Below, in pieces: positions 19,857-29,566 of a stretch of 64,000 nt of DNA. Where the stretch lies: assembly GCA_964576515.1 (NCBI GenBank), contig CAZNUW010000008.1, forward strand, positions 36,307 through 100,306. The letters run 5' to 3'. Below the pieces are notes generated by a model, which saw only the letters and a program-made list of their open reading frames with translations, searched no databases and had not been told where the DNA came from. Within the stretch, counting starts at the first letter, position 1. Every line of letters starts with the position of its first letter. The position numbers were made by a program, and so were the translations under genes. Source of the stretch: an uncultured Rhodobacterales bacterium. Its GTDB lineage: Bacteria; Pseudomonadota; Alphaproteobacteria; Rhodospirillales; Rhodospirillaceae.

Positions 19857-20255
19857 TTATTTCTTGCCGTTGCCCATGGCGAGGCCGGCGAGCAGCGCGG
19901 ACAGGATCGCGGTCCCCTTGTGCTTCGCGAACATATCCTTCAAGTCAGCCAAGCCATCGTCGTCGTCACTGGAAATCTGTTGTTGGCGGTTCGGCTGCTG
20001 TAGGGTCGCGCGCGCCACGAGCGCAAATAATCCGCTGAGCGCTGCGAACAGAACCCCCATCACTAAGGCGGCGGCATCGCCGCCGATCCGGGGTATCAAG
20101 AAGAGCCACAGCGCGGCCGCCAGAGCGCCAAGCGACGTAACGCCGCACAAGCCCGCGAGCACAAGCCATTTCGCCGCGCCCGACACACGGCTGACGCGCT
20201 GTGTCAGCCGCATCTCGGCGAGCATCATCAAGGCCATCTTGATGAGCTTTTCCAT
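19857..20255 (-). CDS. phage-holin-family / YqjE-like membrane protein
   Basis: Two to three TM helices. Positioned directly downstream of a DUF883 gene, as in the E. coli yqjD-yqjE pair. Confidence 0.6.
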   Translation of the reverse strand: MEKLIKMALMMLAEMRLTQRVSRVSGAAKWLVLAGLCGVTSLGALAAALWLFLIPRIGGDAAALVMGVLFAALSGLFALVARATLQQPNRQQQISSDDDDGLADLKDMFAKHKGTAILSALLAGLAMGNGKK

Positions 20256-20278
20256 GGAAGGCCCCTGTACGTTCTCTG

Positions 20279-20602
20279 CTACTTCGAGCGGAAGAATACT
20301 TTTGAGATGACGAAGCCCGCAGCAAAGGCCATCAAGAGGCTTGCGATCGGCTGATCGTCCACCTGACGTTCCATCGCGGCAAGCGATTTGCGTCCGCGCT
20401 TCTGCATGTCCTTGTAGAGATCCGCGGCATCATCCTGAAGGTCGTCGGCCATATCGCGCGCGCTATCGAGTGCGTCATCGAGCGACAGTTTCTTGACGTG
20501 GGCGATCGCCTTTTGCACGTCCTTCTTCAGCGCGGCGAGGTCGTCGATGATCGCCTCGATATCCGCGCCACTCACATTTTCAAGTTTTTTGCGCAAATCC
20601 AT
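20279..20602 (-). CDS. DUF883 (ElaB/YqjD/YgaM-like) tail-anchored stress protein
   Basis: Charged helical N-terminal part and C-terminal anchor PIASLLMAFAAGFVISKVF. Start MDLRKK at 20602. Confidence 0.75.
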   Translation of the reverse strand: MDLRKKLENVSGADIEAIIDDLAALKKDVQKAIAHVKKLSLDDALDSARDMADDLQDDAADLYKDMQKRGRKSLAAMERQVDDQPIASLLMAFAAGFVISKVFFRSK

Positions 20603-20760
20603 AGTGAAAGCCCTTCCCACAGGAGGTGTGACGATACGAGAGCCGAATGCCCGACACGTAAAGCCCGACACGTAAAGATAGTTCCGATTTACCGCGAAAT
20701 ATAACGCATTCAACGGTTCGCACGTCTTCCGGTTGCTGTTCTCCGTGTAATCCGCCCTTC

Positions 20761-20785
20761 GGAACTCTTCATAGTGGCGTTCGTT
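20761..20785 (+). promoter_or_regulatory. EcfG-type promoter GGAAC-N16-CGTT (consensus)
   Basis: Exact motif, with the -10 lying 37 nt upstream of the DUF3309 ATG. Confidence 0.6.
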
Positions 20786-20821
20786 ACATCAGGACAAGCG
20801 AGCAAAAAAAGGAAAAGAACC

Positions 20822-20977
20822 ATGCTCAGCACGATCCTGCTTATTCTGCTCATCGCCCTTCTGATCGGTGCGTTGCCAAGCTGGCCGTACAGCCGAGGTT
20901 GGGGTTACTACCCCAGCGGCGCATTCTCCATTCTACTCATCGTCGTCGTGGTCTTGCTACTTGCCGGTCGTATCTGA
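20822..20977 (+). CDS. DUF3309 family small membrane protein
   Basis: 51 aa, ..LLIGALPSWPYSRGWGYYPSG... motif. Confidence 0.7.
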   Translation: MLSTILLILLIALLIGALPSWPYSRGWGYYPSGAFSILLIVVVVLLLAGRI

Positions 20978-21000
20978 ACGGAATTCCCCTAACCAAAGGT

Positions 21001-21037
21001 AAAACCCCGCGAGGCGATCGGCCTCCGCGGGGTTTTG
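21001..21037. terminator. bidirectional terminator between the DUF3309 gene and sodB
   Basis: AAAACCCCGCG...CGCGGGGTTTTG hairpin. Confidence 0.6.
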
Positions 21038-21075
21038 CTTGTAGGTCCTGCGCCTATAAGCGACTAGATGTGGTG

Positions 21076-21696
21076 TCAGGCCTTCGCGAAGTTCTGTGAC
21101 GCAAAATCCCAGTTCAGCAGTTTTTCGACCACAGCATCGACGTGGTCCTTCCGCACATTCTGATAGTCGAGATAGTAGGCGTGTTCCCATACGTCGACCG
21201 TCAGGAGGCAGGCCACGCCGTGAGCCTTCGGCGTATCCGCATCGCCTGTATCTTTCACCTTCAACGTCCCGCCCTCGTACACAAGCCAAGCCCATCCGCT
21301 ACCGAAATGGTCCGTGGCCTTCTGCTTGAGTTCTTTCTTGAGGGCGTCAAGGGAACCGAAATCCCGCTCTATCGCCTTCTGCAGATCCGCGGACGGCGTC
21401 GTTTTCGACGGCGACAGGCTATTCCAATAAAACGTGTGATTCCAAATCTGCGCCGCATTATTGAAAATCTTTCTGTTGTCCTCGTCACCGCAGGTTTCGG
21501 CGACGATATCTTCAAGCGACATTTCGGCGAAGGGCGTGCCCTTCACCAAATCATTGAGCTTGTCGACATACCCTTTGTGATGCTTGCCATAATGAAACTG
21601 GAGCGTCTTGGCGGAGATCACTGGAGCAAGCGCGTCCTCAGCGTACGGAAGGGGCGGAAGCGTGAAAGGACTTGAGGTCGCGTCTTTAGGCACCAT
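21076..21696 (-). CDS. sodB: Fe/Mn-family superoxide dismutase (Fe-type likely)
   Basis: LPPLPY....L.P.IS..T..FHYGKHH..YV and DVWEHAYYLDYQN motifs. Confidence 0.95.
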   Translation of the reverse strand: MVPKDATSSPFTLPPLPYAEDALAPVISAKTLQFHYGKHHKGYVDKLNDLVKGTPFAEMSLEDIVAETCGDEDNRKIFNNAAQIWNHTFYWNSLSPSKTTPSADLQKAIERDFGSLDALKKELKQKATDHFGSGWAWLVYEGGTLKVKDTGDADTPKAHGVACLLTVDVWEHAYYLDYQNVRKDHVDAVVEKLLNWDFASQNFAKA

Positions 21697-21749
21697 GAAA
21701 CTTCTCCTTGAAACAACTTAAAGGGCGCCACTCATACACGAGAATGACG

Positions 21750-21782
21750 AAAAACGAAAACGGCGGCCGCAAGGCCGCCGTT
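21750..21782 (-). terminator. intrinsic terminator after the DUF1328 gene
   Basis: 10-bp stem AACGGCGGCC/GGCCGCCGTT followed, on the minus strand, by TTCGTTTTTCG. Confidence 0.6.
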
Positions 21783-21804
21783 CGCGCAAAAAACAGGCTC
21801 AATT

Positions 21805-21987
21805 CTAGATGGGAGGCGGCGGCGCCTTACCGCGCACCAAGTGGAGCACCAACGTCACCAGGAACACCAAGAGGAACAGGAAGAACAGGATCTGAGCGAT
21901 CCCGGCCGACGCCGAGGCCAACCCGCCGAAACCGAGCACACCGGCGATGATGGCGACGACAAGAAATACGAGTGCCCAACTCAGCAT
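21805..21987 (-). CDS. DUF1328 (UPF0391/YtjA-like) small membrane protein
   Basis: [34 protein letters not shown] pattern. Confidence 0.8.
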
Positions 21988-22058
21988 ATCGATTCTCCTT
22001 TTACATCATATTCATGCACGTGAACGCTGCGATCTGCGTGCACGACCCGCGAACGCGC

Positions 22059-22208
22059 TTAGTTGCGACGCGCGTCTTCGGAAGCATCATCGATCGCGTC
22101 GCCGGCCGAGCGGACGTCTTCGCCAACACCTTCAACGGTGTTGCAGGCCGCGAGGCTCAACGAAAAGACGGTGGCGAGAATGGCGAACAGAGTGGTGGTC
22201 GCTTTCAT
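22059..22208 (-). CDS. entericidin EcnA/B-family lipoprotein
   Basis: 49 aa, lipobox LAAC, NTVEGVGEDV..AG..I. A weak EcfG-like motif GGAAC-N17-AGTT lies at 22272-22297. Confidence 0.7.
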   Translation of the reverse strand: MKATTTLFAILATVFSLSLAACNTVEGVGEDVRSAGDAIDDASEDARRN

Positions 22209-22355
22209 AGCACTATTCCCTTGATGTATAATTCGAAGCACCAATTGCCTTCGACGTAACTCGGACTCATAAACTCGGGAGTACGGCGAGAAGTTCCACG
22301 CTGTTACGTGAGTGCGGATGTTTTTCGCCCGCCGCGTGTGGCGAAATTGAGGCAC

Positions 22356-22385
22356 AAAAAAACCGCCCGCGGGCTTCGCGGGCGG
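22356..22385 (-). terminator. intrinsic terminator after phyR
   Basis: CCGCCCGCG-ggctt-CGCGGGCGG, followed on the minus strand by TTTTTTT. Confidence 0.7.
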
Positions 22386-22411
22386 TTTGTGGCGAAAAAC
22401 AAAAGGCGCTT

Positions 22412-23200
22412 TTAGGCGTCGGGCTGGTCTTCCGCCAGTAACAAGGCCTGGGCGATTGTGGCCTTCACGCTATCGGCCATGAACGGCTTGGTGACAAGGA
22501 ATGTCGGTTCCGGCCGCTCACCGGTGAGAAGGCGTTCCGGATAGGCGGTGATGAAAATCACCGGTGCATCCACCTGCTCAAGAATGTCGCTGACCGCGTC
22601 GATCCCTGAACTGTTGTCTGCGAGCTGGATGTCCGCGAGGATAAGACCCGGACGCCACTTTCCCACGGCGTTGACGGCTTCCTTGCGTGTACGCACCACG
22701 GCGAACACGTTATGACCCATCTCCTCAACGATATTGGAAAGGTCGAGCGAGATGATAGGCTCGTCCTCGATAATAAGAACCGACGTGGGGCTTTGCGCGA
22801 CGAGGTCGTACAAGGCTTCTTTCACCATCCGGCCGATTTCGTCCGGCGTACGATCAAGGATTTGCGCCGCCTCGGATTGGGTGAAATCCTCCATCGCGGT
22901 AAGAAGCAGCGCCTGACGCCGCGCGACACCCAGCGCGTCAAGTTTGTCGCGGAACTTATCGCTCCCCTCACCCACCGCCGTCAAACCGCGCGCAGGCCGG
23001 GTCCCGGACCAAATCACATGAAAGATCCGATACAGCGCCACGCGCGGATGCATATCGCGGTGATACCTGTCCGGAGACTCCACTATGGCCTCCAGGGTCG
23101 CGCGCACATAGGCGTCACCACTGGCCTGCGAGCCGGCGAGCGCCCGCGCATAACGGCGCAGGAACGGAAGGTGGGAAGCGATTTCGTGGGACAGCGACAT
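22412..23200 (-). CDS. phyR: PhyR anti-anti-sigma response regulator (sigma-like domain plus receiver)
   Basis: N-terminal ECF-sigma-like domain (HLPFLRRYARAL.G....D.YV...LE) and C-terminal receiver (VLIIEDEP.I......, ILADIQL, KPF). Confidence 0.9.
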   Translation of the reverse strand: MSLSHEIASHLPFLRRYARALAGSQASGDAYVRATLEAIVESPDRYHRDMHPRVALYRIFHVIWSGTRPARGLTAVGEGSDKFRDKLDALGVARRQALLLTAMEDFTQSEAAQILDRTPDEIGRMVKEALYDLVAQSPTSVLIIEDEPIISLDLSNIVEEMGHNVFAVVRTRKEAVNAVGKWRPGLILADIQLADNSSGIDAVSDILEQVDAPVIFITAYPERLLTGERPEPTFLVTKPFMADSVKATIAQALLLAEDQPDA

Positions 23201-23245
23201 GATGGCTAGATCCTATTGTATCCCCGCGAACGCCGGGCACGCGCC

Positions 23246-23271
23246 AACGACGCCAAGGGGGACAAAGTTAA
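23246..23271 (-). promoter_or_regulatory. EcfG-like promoter candidate TTAAC-N17-CGTT upstream of phyR
   Basis: -10 is exact and the -35 keeps the AAC core. About 45 nt upstream of the phyR ATG. Confidence 0.4.
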
Positions 23272-23452
23272 ACAGGGCACCCGACATAAGGCTAGTTCAT
23301 TTTCGAGACATGAAGGAAGCGTCCGGCGGACGAGCAAGCGCTATGAAACGCATAAAGAGGAAGCATACGGCGACGGCGAGAAGGGCGATTTGAGATCACA
23401 TGAAGTGGCTGACCGTGGCCTGCCCCAGCGGCTGGGGCGTTCGCGGCGAACT

Positions 23453-23494
23453 GAAAAAGAAGAAGCGCCGCGAACCTGGAAGAGCCCGCGGCGC
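23453..23494 (-). terminator. intrinsic terminator after the Gln-rich ORF
   Basis: 8-bp stem GCGCCGCG/CGCGGCGC, followed on the minus strand by TTCTTCTTTTTC. Confidence 0.55.
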
Positions 23495-23505
23495 CCGAAA
23501 AGGCA

Positions 23506-23715
23506 TTATCGCTGCTGTTGATCGCGCCCCTGCTGTCCCTGCTGATTTTGCTGCGACTGCTGGCGATCCTGCTGATTCTGCTGACCTTGCTGGCGTTGCC
23601 GGTCATGCTGACCCTGTTGATTCTGCTGGCGCTGAGAGTCCTGCTGACTGTGCTGGCTCTGCTGATTTTGCTGGCCTTGCTGACGCTGCTGGTCCTGTCT
23701 GGATTTGTCCGTCAT
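23506..23715 (-). CDS. 69-aa glutamine-rich (36 of 69 Gln) low-complexity protein
   Basis: ATG preceded by AGAGGAA at about 7 nt. It has its own consensus EcfG promoter and its own terminator. No hydrophobic residue after Met1. RQQGQQNQQ-type repeats. Confidence 0.6.
   Translation of the reverse strand: MTDKSRQDQQRQQGQQNQQSQHSQQDSQRQQNQQGQHDRQRQQGQQNQQDRQQSQQNQQGQQGRDQQQR
23510..23700. repeat. CAG/CAA (CTG/TTG on plus strand) low-complexity repeat tract
   Basis: Runs of ctgctg / ttgctg with recurring units ctgctgattctgctg and ctgctgattttgctg. Confidence 0.8.
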
Positions 23716-23785
23716 GTCACCGTTCCTCTTTTTTATGAAGACTGCGTGGGCTCGACGTGCAGGGAATAGTTATCCCCTAACGCAG

Positions 23786-23810
23786 AACGGTAGAGGCGGC
23801 GGTTAGTTCC
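23786..23810 (-). promoter_or_regulatory. EcfG-type promoter GGAAC-N16-CGTT (consensus) for the Gln-rich ORF
   Basis: The plus strand reads AACG-N16-GTTCC. The -10 lies about 70 nt upstream of the ATG at 23715. Confidence 0.6.
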
Positions 23811-23858
23811 CGCCTCCATCGGCTTTTTTTATTCTCATGAGGGGAGTGAATGAGAGCC

Positions 23859-24158
23859 CTAGTGGGGGGTGGATCCGGCCTTCGTGGGCGGCGCCGGGGC
23901 GTCCGCGCGCGGCCCCTTATTCTCATCGTCAAGGGCCAAGAGGGCGCTCACGATGGACCCCAGGTGTCCATTCTCGCCCGAAGTCATATTCTCTTCCTCG
24001 GCGACCGCCATCAGGCGGGCGTCGACCTCCCACTGGCGCAGGATCTCCAGCTTCGCCTGACGCGAAAGCCCCGGATAAGTCAGAACGTCCTTCGGATGTT
24101 CAAAAAACTTGCTGGGATTGACCTTCGCCTCGGCGATATTCAGTTGCGTTTGGGCCAT
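23859..24158 (-). CDS. small conserved-looking hypothetical protein (GSR-linked)
   Basis: 99 aa from MAQTQLNIAEAK..., acidic core LSRQAKLEILRQWEVDARLMAVAEEENM. Consensus EcfG promoter immediately upstream. Confidence 0.55.
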   Translation of the reverse strand: MAQTQLNIAEAKVNPSKFFEHPKDVLTYPGLSRQAKLEILRQWEVDARLMAVAEEENMTSGENGHLGSIVSALLALDDENKGPRADAPAPPTKAGSTPH

Positions 24159-24191
24159 ATCGTCACCACATGTCGTTTCCGTGGGACGGGA

Positions 24192-24217
24192 AACGCCGTC
24201 CCTTCCGGCAAAGTTCC
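24192..24217 (-). promoter_or_regulatory. EcfG-type promoter GGAAC-N17-CGTT (consensus)
   Basis: The plus strand reads AACG-N17-GTTCC, about 35 nt upstream of the ATG at 24158. Confidence 0.6.
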
Positions 24218-24316
24218 GGTTGTGGAAAAATCTCGCGGGAGCCCCCTTCGGATTGACGCTCGGGTTCGCATCAAAACCTCCGTTCCTAAAAATCCAAGAG
24301 TTTGAAGAGTTTCCCC

Positions 24317-24341
24317 GAAACACTTTCTACTTGGCGGCGTT
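24317..24341 (+). promoter_or_regulatory. EcfG-type promoter GAAAC-N16-CGTT upstream of the ECF sigma gene (autoregulation)
   Basis: One mismatch in the -35. The -10 lies 37 nt upstream of the ATG at 24378. Confidence 0.55.
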
Positions 24342-24377
24342 GTAACTACTATCGGGGTTCAAATTCAGGGACGGGCT

Positions 24378-24932
24378 ATGGCTAACGAATTCCACCAGAT
24401 GCTGCTTGAGCACCTTCCGCGTCTGCAAGCCTACGCGATCATGCTGACCCGCGACCGCGCCCAGGCCGAAGACCTGCTTCAAGAAACATCCCTGCGCGCC
24501 CTGCGCGCGCAAAGCCAGTTCATGATGGGGACCAACTTCACGGCGTGGATCTATAAAATCCTGCGCAACGAGTACATCAGTTCGCTGCGGCGGAAGAAAC
24601 GCCAACCGGTTCAAATCGAGGATATGCCGGCTGAATTCCTATCGCGCAAAGGCGAACAGGAGAACGACGTTCTATCCCGCGAAATCATCCAGGCGATGGA
24701 CAAGCTTCAGCATGGCCAACGCGAGGTTCTGATCCTGATCTGCGCGAGCGGCCTCAGCTACGAAGAAGCCGCCGAGGCGCTCGGTTGTTCGGTCGGCACG
24801 ATCAAAAGCCGCTTGTGGCGCGCCCGCGCTCGTATGGCGTCGCTCATCATGGGCGACGAAGACACCAAATCCGGGAGAGGCCGTGATTTCATCGAGCCGC
24901 CCCGCGAGATGGCCAGTTCCGCATTCCTGTAG
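24378..24932 (+). CDS. ecfG: ECF sigma factor, EcfG (ECF15)-like
   Basis: Region 2 (DL.QET.L.A......F..GTNF.AW.Y.ILRN.YIS..RR) and region 4 (QREVL.L....G.SYEE.A..LG...GT.KSR. RAR). Located in a phyR/nepR context. Confidence 0.85.
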   Translation: MANEFHQMLLEHLPRLQAYAIMLTRDRAQAEDLLQETSLRALRAQSQFMMGTNFTAWIYKILRNEYISSLRRKKRQPVQIEDMPAEFLSRKGEQENDVLSREIIQAMDKLQHGQREVLILICASGLSYEEAAEALGCSVGTIKSRLWRARARMASLIMGDEDTKSGRGRDFIEPPREMASSAFL

Positions 24933-25063
24933 ATTGTCCCCTCCTCTGCGCCCGCTTACTATGTCTCGAGCCGAAGGCATCACGCCGCCCACACAAGCCG
25001 CCCTGCCACTAAGCCGCGCAGTTTTCAGTCCCCTTGATTTCCAGAAGTTGCTTTCGACCACTC

Positions 25064-25264
25064 ATGAGTGAGAAATCAAAATCAAAGCCTGACGCCACCG
25101 CGGCTTCACTTCGCCCACAAGCGAAGTTCAATCCCGCATTCGATTCATGGCTGGAAACGAAATTGCACAAGATATTCGATTCCGTCGCCTCCGAACCGCT
25201 GCCGCAAGATCTGGTGAAGCTGCTGGACGATATCGATCAGGCGGAAAAGAAAAAGAAGGGTTAG
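25064..25264 (+). CDS. nepR: NepR-family anti-sigma factor
   Basis: 66 aa with the motif L..K L.KIFDSVASEPLPQDLVKLLDDI, matching the NepR core (..V..EP.P..f..LL..l). Confidence 0.6.
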   Translation: MSEKSKSKPDATAASLRPQAKFNPAFDSWLETKLHKIFDSVASEPLPQDLVKLLDDIDQAEKKKKG

Positions 25265-25283
25265 AGTCCTATTCCACGCAAGC

Positions 25284-25318
25284 AAAAAGCCGGCGCGCAT
25301 TTCCGTGCCGGCTTTTTA
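25284..25318. terminator. bidirectional terminator between nepR and the convergent small gene
   Basis: AAAAAGCCGGC...GCCGGCTTTTT. Confidence 0.65.
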
Positions 25319-25338
25319 CTATGTTGATGTGAGTATCC

Positions 25339-25551
25339 CTACGCGGGCTTGTGAGGCGCGGCGGGGCGCTTGCCTTTCTCTTCCGCGCGCACCAGTTCGC
25401 CGGCTTCATCGCCGTCGAGGCTCCTCTTCGCGGCCTGGGCCGCGGGATTCACGCGTCCCGACTTCACGAATTTCTCTGTCGCATCGTTATACTGTTTGGC
25501 AGCCGTCCGACTGCCCTCACCTTCATTCCGGGTACCCTGGTTCTGCGCCAT
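25339..25551 (-). CDS. small hydrophilic stress-type protein
   Basis: 70 aa, NEGEGSRTAAKQYN..T.KFV.SG motif, no hydrophobic segment. An EcfG-like promoter lies upstream. Confidence 0.55.
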   Translation of the reverse strand: MAQNQGTRNEGEGSRTAAKQYNDATEKFVKSGRVNPAAQAAKRSLDGDEAGELVRAEEKGKRPAAPHKPA

Positions 25552-25584
25552 CGATCCATCTCCACCATTGAACTATCGAGATAG

Positions 25585-25609
25585 AACGCGGCGCGGGCGA
25601 CTTTGGTCC
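25585..25609 (-). promoter_or_regulatory. EcfG-like promoter GGACC-N16-CGTT
   Basis: One mismatch in the -35, about 35 nt upstream of the ATG at 25551. Confidence 0.45.
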
Positions 25610-25644
25610 GCCGCGCCTCCGGTAAAAGCTACATAGCCTCGCGC

Positions 25645-26778
25645 TTATTCCGCGGCGCGGCGAGGACCGCGGCTGTCCGCGTGAGGCTCTCCCTCCTCAT
25701 GGCCGTTCTCGTCCTGCCGCTGGCGCCACCAGAAGGCCAGGAGAACCTTGCCGATCGCGACAACCGGGATGGCGATAAACACGCCGATGACGCCCCACAG
25801 TTTCCCGCCCAACAACACGGCAAAGATGACCAGCGCCGGATTAAGCCGCATCCGGTCGCCGATAATGCGAGGCGACAGGATGCTGGATTCGACAAACTCG
25901 GTGATGAGGAATGTCGCCGCGACCCCCAGGATCAGGATGCTGTCCCAACCATCCTGTGTAACGCCGGTGGTGACCGCGATAGTCACGCCAATCGCGGTTC
26001 CGATATAGGGAAGAAACTTAAGTGCGCCCGCGAGCACGCCGATCACGATCGCATAATTGAGGCCGATGGTGTAAAGACCGATTGTATAAAGCACCGCGCA
26101 GCAGAGACAGACCCACGCCTGCCCGTGCAGAAATGCCGACATCACACGGTCGATCCTCCGACCGAGGTAACGCAGCGCGGGGCGTTTTTCCGGCGGCGCC
26201 TCATCCACCAACCACGCCAGCATGCGCGGCCAGTCCTTCAACAGATAGAAGGTGACAACGGGCATCAAAAGCGCAAGTCCGATGGTCGTCGCGAGCGACG
26301 CGGCGAGCGGTACGGCGATGTCCGCGACCGGCGGCTCGGTCGGCGTCGGTTTCACGAGGCCCCCTAAACCGAACTGCTGCAACGCAGGGAAATACGGCCT
26401 CAATTCCTGGCGCATTTCACGCATTAAGCTCGTAAAGACGGTTTGCAGCTCCCGGACCATGGCTTGAAGTTCGCCATACGCGAGAGGCCCGGCCACAGCC
26501 AGTCCGCCGCCGATGGCGAGCACCAATGTGGAAGTAATGAGGCCGGCCGCGATTGCCCGCGAGAAACCACGGCGCACCATCCATGTGGTCAGCGGATCAA
26601 ACAGATAGGCAAAGAGAAAGCAAACCACGAAGAGCGCGAGGATATCCCCCGCGAGCCAGGTGAGCGCGGCGACAATAAGGCCGCCGAGAAAAAGCAGAAG
26701 AAGTTGGTTGGTACCAGAGGTCGTCGTGGGCGACATGCGGACGCCGGGATATGGCCAAGTGGAAGGGGGGTTCACCAT
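25645..26778 (-). CDS. AI-2E family transporter (PerM/UPF0118)
   Basis: Multi-TM protein with the characteristic FLPYIG..IG motif. An alternative start is 26736. Confidence 0.8.
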   Translation of the reverse strand: MVNPPSTWPYPGVRMSPTTTSGTNQLLLLFLGGLIVAALTWLAGDILALFVVCFLFAYLFDPLTTWMVRRGFSRAIAAGLITSTLVLAIGGGLAVAGPLAYGELQAMVRELQTVFTSLMREMRQELRPYFPALQQFGLGGLVKPTPTEPPVADIAVPLAASLATTIGLALLMPVVTFYLLKDWPRMLAWLVDEAPPEKRPALRYLGRRIDRVMSAFLHGQAWVCLCCAVLYTIGLYTIGLNYAIVIGVLAGALKFLPYIGTAIGVTIAVTTGVTQDGWDSILILGVAATFLITEFVESSILSPRIIGDRMRLNPALVIFAVLLGGKLWGVIGVFIAIPVVAIGKVLLAFWWRQRQDENGHEEGEPHADSRGPRRAAE

Positions 26779-26836
26779 AAACGAACGGGAGCGGCAAGTT
26801 AATGCCGCTCCCGCCCCAGAAACCGGCTAAATCGGC

Positions 26837-27040
26837 TCAATGAAGGGCTTTCTCCCAGTCCTTGACCTGGCGCTCGGCGGCTTCCTTCTGGATGCCGTAG
26901 CGCTCCTGGATCCGGCCGACGAGCTGGTCGCGCTTTCCAGCGATGACGTCCAAATCATCGTCGGTGAGGTGGCCCCACTTCTCCTGGACCTTTCCCTTAA
27001 TCTGCTTCCAATTGCCGCTCACCTGATCCCAGTTCATCAT
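26837..27040 (-). CDS. csbD: CsbD family general stress protein
   Basis: NWDQV.GNWKQ.KGKV.EKWG.LTDDDLD.I.GKRDQL.G.IQE.YG. Confidence 0.9.
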   Translation of the reverse strand: MMNWDQVSGNWKQIKGKVQEKWGHLTDDDLDVIAGKRDQLVGRIQERYGIQKEAAERQVKDWEKALH

Positions 27041-27055
27041 GTTCTTGACCTTTCT

Positions 27056-27229
27056 TTAGATGACGAATACCCATGCGATGACGAGTGCGACCAATGCGGC
27101 CGATAGAGAAAACATCAGGACATAGCGGACGCCGTGTCCGGTTTCACCCTGGCGAACCTCGTTCACCGTCAAATCCTCCGGATCTTTCAGCGGCGCCATG
27201 TCGGGTGCGGCGTCGTACGGCTTGTTCAT
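27056..27229 (-). CDS. 57-aa tail-anchored small membrane protein (below the ORF-track cutoff)
   Basis: Hand translation gives MNKPYDAAPDMAPLKDPEDLTVNEVRQGETGHGVRYVLMFSLSAALVALVIAWVFVI*. AGGAGG RBS 5 nt upstream. Stops 15 nt before the csbD start. Confidence 0.45.
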   Translation of the reverse strand: MNKPYDAAPDMAPLKDPEDLTVNEVRQGETGHGVRYVLMFSLSAALVALVIAWVFVI

Positions 27230-27284
27230 GACAGCCTCCTTCGTTCGGACGCGATGAAGAGTCGCACGTCCATGTCCTAGATAT

Positions 27285-27309
27285 AACGTCTTGGTCCGCC
27301 GGAAGTTTC
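27285..27309 (-). promoter_or_regulatory. EcfG-like promoter GAAAC-N16-CGTT upstream of the small-ORF/csbD unit
   Basis: One mismatch in the -35. It lies in the 27230-27328 intergenic gap. Confidence 0.5.
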
Positions 27310-27328
27310 CCGCGGAACGCGCGGAGCT

Positions 27329-27847
27329 TTAAGCCTCGCGCTCGCGCGTGGCTTTCCACCTCGCGTAATCCTCGTCGTATTGCTGAGCCTGACGGCGGCG
27401 CCAGGCGCGATATTCCGCGTCATGCGCATCGAGTTCCGCGCGACGCCAGCGTCGGTACGCCGCGTCGCTGCTATCGAGCGCGGACATCTGCTCATTATTT
27501 TCCGTACCAAACGCCCGCTCGGACGCAAGGCCGTCCATACCGCTCGCGCCGACCTGGCCACGCCACTCCCGCAGACGGGGCTTGCGCCACTCGCGTTCGA
27601 GCCGTTGAACCCCGTAACCGCCGCCGTAGTTCTCACGCTCGTAATCGCGGCCTTGGAATCGCGCATGCCCGCCGCGAGACGTCCGTATCCTGCGCTCTTC
27701 GCGACTTCCATAATCGTGCACATCCATGGAAGATGAGCCGCGGGCGTCAGACTCCAGTTCACGGTCCGCGCGATACGACTGGCGATCTCGCGAACCATAG
27801 CCACACTCTTCGTCACGTGTTCCGTATCGGTCGCGCCGCGGCATCAT
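27329..27847 (-). CDS. highly charged, probably disordered protein with a C-terminal Y-x-x-W-[RK] repeat region (resembles C-termini of SWFGD-type stress proteins)
   Basis: R/D/E/G/Y-rich. The C-terminus is AAYRRWRRAELDAHDAEYRAWRRRQAQQYDEDYARWKATRE. GGGAGG RBS before the tandem ATGs at 27847/27844. Confidence 0.55.
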   Translation of the reverse strand: MMPRRDRYGTRDEECGYGSRDRQSYRADRELESDARGSSSMDVHDYGSREERRIRTSRGGHARFQGRDYERENYGGGYGVQRLEREWRKPRLREWRGQVGASGMDGLASERAFGTENNEQMSALDSSDAAYRRWRRAELDAHDAEYRAWRRRQAQQYDEDYARWKATREREA

Positions 27848-27904
27848 CACCTCCCGTCGCCGGCCAAGTACTTGAAGATTAAGCGCGCCACGCAACACAA
27901 AGTT

Positions 27905-27950
27905 CCGGCGCTGTCGCGCCATACGCGCCGGCGCTGTCGCGCCATACGCG
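27905..27950. repeat. perfect tandem duplication, 2 x 23 bp (CCGGCGCTGTCGCGCCATACGCG)
   Basis: Read directly. It abuts a GGAAC pentamer at 27902-27906 (minus strand). Confidence 0.85.
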
Positions 27951-28042
27951 AAGGTGAGACAGGCTGTTCGTCAGCGCCACAAGATTGCCGCCTTTCAGTC
28001 AAAATTGCCCTGAAGATACAGATATTTAGCCGCACGCCACGC

Positions 28043-28068
28043 GGAACGAATCCCCGCCTCCCCACGTT
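28043..28068 (+). promoter_or_regulatory. EcfG-type promoter GGAAC-N17-CGTT (consensus)
   Basis: About 57 nt upstream of the SH3-protein start. Confidence 0.6.
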
Positions 28069-28124
28069 TCTTCTTCGCTGCCGCCGTTCATTTTCATACC
28101 GGCTCGAAAGTCGCCGGAGTCCGC

Positions 28125-28574
28125 GTGAGGAGCGTCATGACGAAGTCCCCCATTCTGTTCGCCGCGCTATGTGTCACCGCCGTTTTCGCCGCGCCGGCCA
28201 TGGCCGCGAACGGGTCCACCTCGCAAGGCATACAGATGCAGGCTGGACCGGGATCGGACTATCCCGATGTGATGCGTCTCGCGCCCAACCTGAAGGTGAC
28301 CATTCATGGATGTTCGCGGACGTGGGATTGGTGCGACGTTGAGTGGCGCGGCAATCGCGGATGGGTGCCAGCGGCCACCATCGACTACCGGCGCGGCGAC
28401 ACGCTTTTTCCGGTAGCGAATTTTGGACCGCGCATCGGGCTTCCCCAAGTCGACTTCAACCTCGGAAGCTACTGGAACGCTCACTATCGTCAGCGGCCTT
28501 GGTACGCGCAGCGTCAGGCGTGGGCCACACGCACGCAGCCGCCGGTCCGTGTCTTCGCCGAAGTCACGAACTAG
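28125..28574 (+). CDS. exported bacterial SH3-domain protein
   Basis: Signal peptide ...AAPAMA, then an SH3_3-like V.A..L.MQAGPG..YP.V..L.....V...GC....WC.V.W.G..GWV segment. Alternative start at 28137. Confidence 0.7.
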   Translation: MRSVMTKSPILFAALCVTAVFAAPAMAANGSTSQGIQMQAGPGSDYPDVMRLAPNLKVTIHGCSRTWDWCDVEWRGNRGWVPAATIDYRRGDTLFPVANFGPRIGLPQVDFNLGSYWNAHYRQRPWYAQRQAWATRTQPPVRVFAEVTN

Positions 28575-28603
28575 AGGTTTATCAGGCGCCCTCTGCCCGC
28601 ATT

Positions 28604-28707
28604 CAAAAAAAGGCCCTTCCGCACATGGCGAAAGGGCCTTTTTGAAGTCACAGGAATTTCGGCGGAAGCGCGGGGGGAAAAGCGCTGGGGAACACGCCGA
28701 AATCACA
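28604..28707 (-). ncRNA. candidate EcfG-dependent small RNA (about 100 nt, GsrN-like architecture)
   Basis: A consensus EcfG promoter with no ORF downstream. Stem ATTTCGGCG/CGCCGAAAT encloses AGCGC-UUUUCCCCCC-GCGCU. This is followed by the terminator GGCCCTTTC...GGAAGGGCC plus a T7 run. Confidence 0.45.
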
Positions 28708-28713
28708 CACCAT

Positions 28714-28738
28714 AACGGCGGCATCCGATGAAGGTTCC
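28714..28738 (-). promoter_or_regulatory. EcfG-type promoter GGAAC-N16-CGTT (consensus) with no protein gene downstream
   Basis: The plus strand reads AACG-N16-GTTCC. It points toward 28700->28600. Confidence 0.6.
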
Positions 28739-28787
28739 CGCCACAGGCGAGAAAATGACAGCTTTTAGGGTCGCTTTGACGGAGAAC

Positions 28788-29210
28788 CTAGTTGTTTGCG
28801 TGTGCCGGCGCGGCCGCCAAGGTCTGGCGATCTTCGCCACTCAGGGCCTCGATAAGGCCTTGCTCTAACAACTCTATTCCGTAAGGTTTGCGAATGGATG
28901 CACAATCCTGAAGTTCGACCGGAAGGTTCTTGTCATCCATGCCGGTGGTCACGATGACCCGAATACCCCTTTTCCGGAACTGCTCGGCGGCAGGCGCGCT
29001 GCCTTCGCCTTTTAATCTGTAATCGAGCAAAACCGCATCGACATCGCAGGCCTCCAAAGTATCGGCCAGGGACAAGGCCTCCGTAAGCGTCCGGGCTGTC
29101 CCCGCATGAACGCACCCCAATTCGTCCAGCATGATCTCGAGCATGGCATTGATAGGGACTTCGTCTTCGATAACGGCGATGCGTTTACCGGCCAAAACGG
29201 GATGACTCAC
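28788..29210 (-). CDS. single-domain response regulator (receiver only)
   Basis: RIAVIEDE, phospho-acceptor context VLLDYRL, and a T/K motif (VIVTTG..., IRKPY). No output domain. Confidence 0.85.
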   Translation of the reverse strand: MSHPVLAGKRIAVIEDEVPINAMLEIMLDELGCVHAGTARTLTEALSLADTLEACDVDAVLLDYRLKGEGSAPAAEQFRKRGIRVIVTTGMDDKNLPVELQDCASIRKPYGIELLEQGLIEALSGEDRQTLAAAPAHANN

Positions 29211-29566
29211 GTCGATGGTTCCTTGTCAGGTTGAACCTAGCGCCATGTTAACGCCGCATTTCGGGTTTCGTTGCGCTCACAAGTGGAAAAGAACGAGGAT
29301 CCTGGGCGATTTTCCGCGTATCAAGTGCTTCAAACCAAGCTGAAAGCGTCACAATTCCTTCATTGCGAGGCCATCCACCCGCAAGCCGCTCCCGAATGCC
29401 CCAAAAATGGTTGAAAAACCCTATCCAGCACCGGCTCCGCCCTCGAGCCTTCCGGCGTCACGGAAACGATTCTGAAGCGAACGCTTCCCCATTTCTTCAT
29501 TGGACCCCGTGATGCGCGGCCACGCACACTTTTCCCAGCACCAATGGGGTCTCAAGGGGTAAGACG

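Follow-up and report, generated by a model that had tools for sequence, protein, structure and literature searches.

The minus strand at 23506–23715 of a 64,000-nucleotide stretch from an uncultured Rhodospirillaceae bacterium (contig CAZNUW010000008.1, positions 36,307 to 100,306; hereafter the window) contains a small open reading frame (ORF) whose predicted product is dominated by glutamine. Comparison with orthologous loci shows this Q-rich ORF to be a real small gene that codes for protein and has kept its frame across a clade of uncultured Rhodospirillaceae. It is located next to phyR, in a region devoted to the general stress response (GSR). Our favored reading, held with fair confidence, is that of a lineage-specific, dispensable, σEcfG-induced and disordered hydrophilin-like microprotein, which would be co-transcribed with phyR and has probably been lost at least twice.

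A glutamine-rich frame conserved between species

Translation of the ORF yields MTDKSRQDQQRQQGQQNQQSQHSQQDSQRQQNQQGQHDRQRQQGQQNQQDRQQSQQNQQGQQGRDQQQR, in exact agreement with the 69-residue peptide given in an initial annotation of the window that was made from the sequence alone. It consists of Q36 R8 D6 S5 G5 N4 H2 K1 T1 M1, with zero A, V, I, L, F, W, Y, C or P after Met1, and its 15 charged residues (8 R, 1 K and 6 D; 22%) are evenly distributed. Gln makes up 3.1% of residues across the 29 long ORFs of the window (61% GC), in which the Q-rich ORF is a gross outlier; the runner-up among all 279 ORFs of at least 50 amino acids contains 12%. The peptide QRQQGQQNQQ occurs twice, starting at residues 10 and 40, and Tandem Repeats Finder picks up degenerate periodicity at 9, 18, 30 and 36 nt with 61–82% match. 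Tryptic-type peptides contained in the Gln frame include SRQDQQR, QQGQQNQQSQHSQQDSQR and QQNQQGQHDR. Both the composition (36/69 Gln, no hydrophobic residue beyond Met1) and the RQQGQQNQQ-type repeats described in the initial annotation are thereby borne out.

Related loci were collected with PhyR as a query. Scanned with the PhyR protein, a set of one genome per species gave ten close loci (L001–L010), all in metagenome bins labelled Rhodospirillaceae or similar, and a metagenome scan with a PhyR alignment returned seven loci, including L016, which was new and useful, and others that were more distant. Orthologues of the Q-rich ORF form a set of seven: the window, L001, L002, L005, L008, L009 and L016. 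All are syntenic, lie at the same position and on the same strand, begin with ATG-ACN-GAY/AAC and encode 63–80 residues with 41–52% Gln. The ATG, a Shine-Dalgarno sequence and an MTD or MTN start are kept throughout, and six of the seven end in QQQ(K/R)-stop, L016 ending in ...NRSRT. The six proteins besides that of the window have a grand average of hydropathy (GRAVY) between −2.70 and −2.93 and a net charge of +2 to +5. Conservation thus extends beyond Gln to non-Gln residues, an MTDK(S/N)K start, a basic C-terminus and a net positive charge. The L008 version recurs identically in L013 and L019.

Several patterns of sequence change mark the Gln frame as the one under selection. Pairwise DNA alignments of the Q-rich ORFs, built without reference to any reading frame, contain gaps of 3, 6, 9, 15, 21, 24 and 27 nt only, the one departure being a 1+2 pair that compensates itself, between the two most divergent sequences. 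Substitutions accumulate at the third codon position of the Gln frame, with counts at positions 1/2/3 of, for example, 5/11/27, 17/12/36 and 11/10/28. When nonsynonymous and synonymous differences were counted by Nei-Gojobori (NG86) and pooled for each of the six frames, pN/pS came to 0.26 in the Gln frame, compared with 0.83 in an antisense Leu frame, 1.43 in an antisense Ala frame and 1.36–1.73 in the remaining sense frames. A value of 0.37, the one other low ratio, comes from an antisense frame whose third positions coincide with those of the Gln frame and which is riddled with stop codons. The same signature is present within single genes. The two QRQQGQQNQQ copies of the window gene differ at four nucleotides, all in third position, and the internal repeats of L005 and L008 retain Ser through switches from AGC to TCC, which argues that selection acts on the peptide. 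Codons other than those for Gln also show pyrimidine changes at their third positions (GGC/GGT, CGT/CGC, AAT/AAC). Finally, the seven genes together contain roughly 230 Gln codons; a single transition would turn any of them into a stop, and none has become one at a synonymous divergence of 0.6–0.86. The protein-coding claim of the initial annotation has therefore withstood the comparative checks that were proposed with it: orthologues were searched for frameshifting indels and every gap is in frame, the contrast of synonymous and nonsynonymous change shows the low ratio and third-position excess of a coding frame, and length differs between species by multiples of three.

Placement in the phyR leader

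Upstream of the ORF lies an exact match to a σEcfG-type promoter, GGAAC-N16-CGTT (GGAACTAACCGCCGCCTCTACCGTT), with 70 nt between its CGTT end and the ATG. The consensus for σEcfG is GAAC-N16,17-C/GGTT, and σEcfG-dependent promoters upstream of phyR are established, as is positive autoregulation (PMC4814048). By itself, the match is statistically unremarkable in the window: exact GGAAC-N16-CGTT sequences number three, where 0.74 would be expected, and at least as many occur in 7 of 100 shuffles. In the intergenic alignment, GGAAC and CGTT are invariant across the window and nine related loci (L001–L009), with a variable spacer, and the first ~40 nt of the presumed transcript are well conserved in L001–L008 and divergent in L009. 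As regards membership in the σEcfG regulon, the promoter match accordingly stands at a plausible distance and is conserved in orthologous loci. Purine-rich Shine-Dalgarno sequences precede all orthologues of the ORF (GAGGAA/GGGGAG/GGAAGGGA equivalents).

The origin of this promoter becomes apparent from relatives that lack the gene. The Q-rich ORF is absent from L003, L004, L006 and L007, whose PhyR is 94–95% identical, as well as from the more distant L010, L015 and L017. In the four close ORF-less relatives the same promoter motif is located 156–272 nt upstream of the phyR ATG, which indicates that the ORF occupies the phyR leader and that the motif is the σEcfG-dependent autoregulatory promoter of phyR. 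The promoter ahead of the Q-rich ORF thus appears to be the ancestral phyR promoter. Together with the hairpins downstream of it, the ORF forms a block of ~400 nt between this promoter and the distal part of the phyR leader, a stretch of ~100 nt whose sequence is shared by loci that carry the ORF and loci that do not.

Between the Q-rich ORF and phyR, no EcfG-type motif was found in the seven loci scanned. No σ70-type match was found in the same interval in four of six loci scanned (the window, L001, L002 and L008), and L009 and L016 contain one weak 9/12 match each. Since no further promoter motif precedes phyR, the Q-rich ORF is most simply read as the first cistron of the phyR transcript, and co-transcription with phyR is the most economical reading of the arrangement. 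In the window genome a terminator-like hairpin begins 9 nt past the stop codon and runs into a T-rich tract (Table 1). The same scan of the coding strand found no hairpin with a T-run after the ORF in L001, L002, L008, L009 or L016; in relatives without a canonical terminator, the ORF is trailed by strong hairpins that lack U-tracts. In L001, L002, L005 and L008, two such hairpins are conserved in sequence within the ~110 nt that follow the stop codon, CCGCAA-N10-TTGCGG and CCTCCCGCGCC...GGTGCGGGAGG. In the window this pair is replaced by the different, terminator-like hairpin.

The initial annotation had presented the gene as a complete, stand-alone transcription unit inserted between phyR and ecfG. 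Its exact promoter and its AGAGGAA ribosome-binding site are present on the minus strand as described, and the −35 and −10 elements are conserved in relatives. Its terminator, a hairpin with a T-run, is present in the window but unconserved in the five orthologues scanned. The ORF does lie in the interval between phyR and ecfG, although a gene for a 99-residue protein separates it from ecfG. The picture of an independent unit holds only in part, because the promoter belongs to phyR, the canonical terminator occurs in the window only and no other promoter motif precedes phyR.

In a neighbor-joining tree of phyR, ORF-bearing loci occupy deep branches (L009 and L016) and several shallow ones, and both L003 and the group of L004, L006 and L007 are nested among them. 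L003 keeps leader sequence that L004, L006 and L007 lack. The simplest history would have the ORF arise once, after the L010 lineage had branched off, and be deleted at least twice since then. Changes in length are likewise visible, with a perfect 30-nt tandem duplication inside the L001 gene. The initial annotation had considered the repeat tract a potential slippage hotspot; in-frame gain and loss of repeats is indeed observed between species, but not within the strain. Slippage hypervariability within the strain was rejected, as the coding sequence is identical in three assemblies of the window strain, two of them further independent ones, and the L008 version is unchanged in a separate metagenome.

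Table 1 Coordinates of the Q-rich gene, its control elements and neighboring features in the window
Feature	Position	Strand	Remarks
Q-rich microprotein coding sequence	23506–23715	−	69 aa; 52% Gln; net charge +3; GRAVY −3.07
σEcfG-type (general stress response) promoter motif	23786–23810	−	exact GGAAC-N16-CGTT; evolutionarily common to phyR
Shine-Dalgarno sequence AGAGGAA	23723–23729	−	7 nt before the ATG of the Q-rich ORF
Terminator-like hairpin and T-rich tract	23453–23496	−	hairpin 23463–23496, 14 pairs (9 G-C), then CTTCTTTTTC; this genome only
Remainder of phyR leader	23201–23452	−	no EcfG-type or σ70-type promoter motif found
Small upstream ORF	23213–23287	−	24 aa, MSGALFNFVPLGVVGACPAFAGIQ-stop; family form MSGALFNLILPTRVIRAGIQ-stop; ends 12 nt before phyR ATG
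phyR (anti-anti-sigma response regulator)	22412–23200	−	probable downstream cistron; Pfam PhyR_sigma2, PhyR_sigma-like, Response_reg
Antisense Leu-rich ORF, 83 aa	23518–23769	+	corresponds to L020 929–1180 (−) and L021 1586–1837 (−); gene call judged to be on the wrong strand
Conserved 99-aa gene	23859–24158	−	MAQTQLNIAEAKVNPSKFF...EEENMTSGEN...; directly upstream of the promoter of the Q-rich ORF, between ecfG and the Q-rich ORF
ecfG	24378–24932	+	diagnostic Pfam domains
nepR	25034–25264	+	diagnostic Pfam domains
Fe superoxide dismutase gene	21076–21696		stress island; Pfam
DUF1328 gene	21805–21987		stress island; Pfam
Entericidin gene	22059–22355		stress island; Pfam
CsbD gene	26837–27040		stress island, 3 kb from the Q-rich ORF; Pfam

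Nature of the product and competing explanations

Under stress, σEcfG would transcribe the Q-rich gene from the autoregulatory promoter of phyR, and the microprotein would thereby be made together with PhyR as the product of the promoter-proximal cistron. In the window genome, the hairpin and U-tract past the stop codon probably end most transcripts and allow a fraction to read into phyR; such partial termination would yield the microprotein in excess over PhyR and damp the positive feedback on phyR. The product is most likely a disordered stress protein of the hydrophilin type, serving as a bulk protectant or as a binder of nucleic acids or proteins. It is unlikely to be an enzyme or a folded regulator. 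The gene was probably born within the phyR leader, and it would grow and shrink by in-frame tandem duplication of CAR-rich units of 9–30 nt. It offers a compact case for gene birth and for length evolution through in-frame repeat duplication. Should the peptide turn out to protect or to self-assemble, it would also serve as a minimal model, in bacteria, of disordered Q-rich proteins. The core PhyR-NepR-σEcfG circuit thereby gains a new and variable component, and relatives with and without the gene allow the effect of a leader cistron on phyR feedback to be compared.

Hydrophilins, as defined by Garay-Arroyo et al. in 2000, have a Gly content above 6% and a hydrophilicity index above 1 (PMC7448490). 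All seven proteins are strongly hydrophilic (Kyte-Doolittle GRAVY −2.7 to −3.1), and Gly reaches 7.2% in the window protein, which falls under the definition, 12% in L001, 6.1% in L002, 8% in L005 and 11% in L016. Like the hydrophilins and small general-stress proteins E. coli YciG, RMF and CsbD/YjbJ, B. subtilis GsiB and the Zymomonas late embryogenesis abundant (LEA)-like protein Zmo0994 (PMC7448490, PMC5437024), the Q-rich protein is small and extremely hydrophilic; it is also probably disordered, seems to be under the control of a general-stress sigma factor and is encoded 3 kb from a CsbD gene. Unlike them, it is dominated by Gln (41–52%) instead of Gly, Lys, Glu or Ala and lacks KGG and LEA motifs, and its gene lies inside the leader of the gene for the GSR master regulator, whereas hydrophilin genes are scattered in the regulon. 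A further parallel is the Bacillus γ-type small acid-soluble spore protein SspE, a small, hydrophilic, Gln/Asn-rich and repeat-containing protein that serves as a dispensable amino-acid reserve in the σG sporulation programme. Compared by description only, and across phyla, SspE and the Q-rich protein are alike in size, Gln/Asn content, repeats, dispensability and, if the Q-rich gene is driven by σEcfG, dependence on a dormancy or stress sigma factor.

The initial annotation knew of no characterized bacterial stress protein of such composition, which is too strong a statement. Hpn-2 (Hpn-like) of H. pylori is a nickel-binding protein of ~8 kDa with ~40% Gln and 25% His, found in a narrow lineage and induced through a dedicated regulator (PMC3856676), and Q-rich disordered regions have been counted in ~16,600 bacterial proteins, with sporadic conservation among relatives (Harrison 2019; PMC6400439). 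In light of Hpn-2 and the census, the composition is unusual but not unprecedented. The Q-rich protein resembles Hpn-2 in being small, Gln-rich and lineage-restricted, a likeness of composition for which we claim no homology. The two differ in control (NikR versus σEcfG) and in His, the Q-rich protein falling outside the high-His range (25–47%) of the Hpn/Hpn-2 nickel-storage proteins. With 2 His in 69 residues (0–4 per protein in the orthologues) and no Cys, the window protein has no metal-binding signature, and metal binding was rejected on these grounds. Secretion or a membrane location was also discarded, as the protein contains no hydrophobic segment. Regions of the census, and C. botulinum Rho, share the Q/N-rich low complexity of the protein; the census regions are domains of larger proteins, whereas here the whole 69-residue protein is the Q-rich tract, with high and even charge and behind a stress promoter. 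What is new is this coincidence of protein and tract, the location within the leader of the gene for the GSR master regulator, where the ORF is naturally present in some relatives and missing from others, and the invisibility of the gene to annotation and homology tools.

Several observations weigh against the picture of a conserved, co-transcribed hydrophilin. The NG86 ratios are open to bias from the transition excess at two-fold sites and from alignment ambiguity in low-complexity sequence. The organism is known solely from metagenome bins, and the case for translation is one made from sequence comparison. The gene is fast-evolving, with a pN of ~0.2 between the window and L001 despite PhyR proteins that are 97% identical, which suggests that constraint is mainly on composition; with two independent losses, it is also dispensable. 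The case for co-transcription is that no promoter could be recognised between the ORF and phyR, and genuine promoters can escape scans with a simple consensus. With 3% and 4% Gly, respectively, L008 and L009 stay under the hydrophilin threshold and membership in the class is non-uniform. Finally, an AlphaFold2 model built from the single sequence without an alignment is one long helix with a predicted local distance difference test score (pLDDT) of 91. This prediction is at odds with disorder, although predictions for Q-rich low-complexity sequence are unreliable: we take the helix to reflect a known tendency for such sequences and not a fold, and judged it uninformative for a fold search.

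It is also conceivable, if unlikely, that the ORF acts in cis and the peptide is irrelevant. Translation of its Gln codons would then couple phyR to charged tRNA-Gln or to nitrogen status by way of termination, antitermination or Rho. Such a role would fit an ORF that sits in the phyR leader behind the phyR promoter, devotes 36 of 69 codons to Gln, is followed closely by a terminator-like hairpin in the window and can be lost without losing phyR. That the leader is complex is clear from a second small upstream ORF (uORF), which adjoins the ribosome-binding site of phyR. The arrangement recalls the attenuator leader peptides trpL and hisL and the uORF leaders of stress regulators, which likewise place an ORF rich in one codon family in a regulated leader. 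At 63–80 codons, however, the Q-rich ORF is far longer than known attenuator leader peptides (3–5 times trpL and hisL), and its Gln codons are scattered and not clustered near the end. The terminator is missing by the same criteria from five orthologues, and both the minimum free energy and the centroid fold of 23455–23779 give an isolated terminator hairpin with no antiterminator pairing into the ORF. The conserved non-Gln residues, start, C-terminus and charge, along with the AGC/TCC switches at Ser, point to selection on the peptide itself. We favor a functional microprotein.

That this microprotein assembles with itself, by amyloid formation or phase separation, to form a scaffold or switch under stress is unlikely, and we give it little weight. 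In its favor, 40 of the 69 window residues are Q or N, and all seven proteins have 32–40 Q/N in at most 80 residues. The Q/N-rich criterion of Michelitsch and Weissman from 2000 is reportedly at least 30 Q/N per 80 residues, a density that all seven exceed. Prion domains of the yeast type are charge-depleted and usually need some Tyr or hydrophobic residues. The window protein, by contrast, is not charge-depleted, its 22% of charged residues being evenly spread, and it has no aromatic or aliphatic residues; Gly and Pro are present in orthologues. Prion-like domains are known from bacteria, one of them being that of C. botulinum Rho (PMC4703818, PMC6400439). A composite of the two preceding ideas is similarly improbable: a recent de novo gene derived by repeat expansion, with a dual role in which Gln-codon-dense translation and the hairpin gate phyR and the product forms a polyglutamine-like scaffold. 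Were it true, the general stress response would possibly sense glutamine or nitrogen status through the extent of σEcfG-driven read-through into phyR, and the product would self-associate through polar-zipper helices or as a condensate to act as a scaffold in times of stress.

More doubtful still is an untranslated tract, that is, a CAG/CAA-rich non-coding repeat or RNA element in the 5′ leader of phyR. Read as (A-R-N)n, a (CAR)n tract corresponds to the motif bound by the distal face of Hfq, as in the E. coli rpoS leader. The (CAG/CAA)n sequence fits A-R-N, with R falling on codon position 3, the site of most G/A variation; the tract is dispensable; and no gene caller in the public collection has called the Q-rich ORF in any of the seven genomes. 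An A-R-N element, however, predicts that N, which is codon position 1, varies most freely, and position 1 is as conserved as position 2 (5/11/27 and 11/10/28 in the comparisons above). The pyrimidine changes at third positions of non-Gln codons, the in-frame indels, the conserved start, Shine-Dalgarno sequence and stop, and the zero stops among ~230 codons that are one transition away argue against it as well. RNA folding of the ORF (z = −1.3) is not unusually structured. At a permissive threshold, Rfam gave no match in 23200–23900; five weak ones (E 0.04–0.3, far below gathering scores) lie elsewhere in 20000–28000.

Annotation of the locus and its surroundings

The automatic gene call on the tract in the Logan assemblies L020 and L021 (identical locus) is an 83-residue Leu-rich ORF on the opposite strand, and a small hydrophobic membrane peptide encoded there is highly improbable as the true gene: although its frame is open in five of seven orthologues, stop codons in L002 and L009 and a pN/pS of more than three times that of the Gln frame led us to reject it, it begins with TTG without a promoter-like site being found, and the conserved promoter, Shine-Dalgarno sequence and ATG are all on the minus strand. 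Its openness is a mirror artefact of a Gln frame that contains no TTA, CTA or TCA codons. A search for further loci with the antisense ORF found no match.

Database searches illustrate why the gene has been overlooked. The Q-rich protein and the alignment of the seven sequences found no match in a word-indexed search of 5.8 billion proteins, the protein found none in an exhaustive phmmer search of 1.84 billion representatives, and it also has no match in Pfam, NCBIfam or PDB sequences, a null that composition correction makes weak. In a HMMER control, this correction removed 40–65 bits even for true orthologues, which at that database size scored E = 0.39 to above 1e8, compared with 1e-9 to 1e-26 with the correction off. 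Because the control fails on true orthologues, the empty protein searches are weak evidence of absence and give no ground for calling the family narrow. In exact look-ups against a collection of 15 billion proteins, all seven Q-rich proteins and the product of an alternative L008 start are absent, the window protein being on record on no contig, and the alternative-frame ORFs of the window are absent likewise. The neighboring 99- and 70-residue products of the same genome are present in the collection. A gene under selection at the protein level is therefore missing from this collection and called on the wrong strand, an annotation blind spot; since HMMER-type searches miss even true orthologues, low-complexity microproteins of this kind would be systematically invisible.

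Two further small ORFs flank the Q-rich gene. A version of the uORF, 20–25 residues long, is found in L001–L008 whether or not the Q-rich ORF is present, and it ends 11–12 nt before the phyR ATG with its stop codon against the phyR ribosome-binding site. Indels of +12 nt (window) and +15 nt (L001) leave its frame intact, and its variable columns fall on codon positions 1/2/3 as 4/4/11. It may be a translated leader peptide that is coupled to phyR translation. On the other side, the 99-residue gene has a promoter motif of its own, GGAAC-N17-CGTT at 24192–24217 (−), and no terminator was found between it and the promoter of the Q-rich ORF. This gene is present in all related loci, including the distant L010, L015 and L017, and its protein has no match in Pfam or NCBIfam; it looks like an uncharacterized core protein of the GSR locus. 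The bins of L009 (CANJMF010000022.1) and L010 (CANJBL010000002.1), both of which carry the 99-residue neighbor and the first of which carries the Q-rich ORF, are labelled 'Candidatus Marinimicrobia'. Their PhyR locus is 73–80% identical to that of the window, and the label looks doubtful.

The wider region from 20000 to 29300 is a dense general-stress island with at least seven EcfG-type motifs over both strands and the stress-related genes listed in Table 1, a setting that speaks for a stress protein of the hydrophilin class; L020 has a DUF3309 gene call at the corresponding position. The order ecfG then nepR is the reverse of the usual nepR-ecfG. The GAAAC-N16-CGTT motif at 24317–24341 (+), which lies 37 nt ahead of the start of ecfG, could plausibly serve as its autoregulatory promoter. 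Adjoining nepR, a hydrophilic ORF of 70 residues (MAQNQGTRNEGEGSRTAAKQYNDATEKFVKSGR..., 25339–25551, minus strand) is recorded in the public protein collection without a family match and represents a candidate small stress protein.

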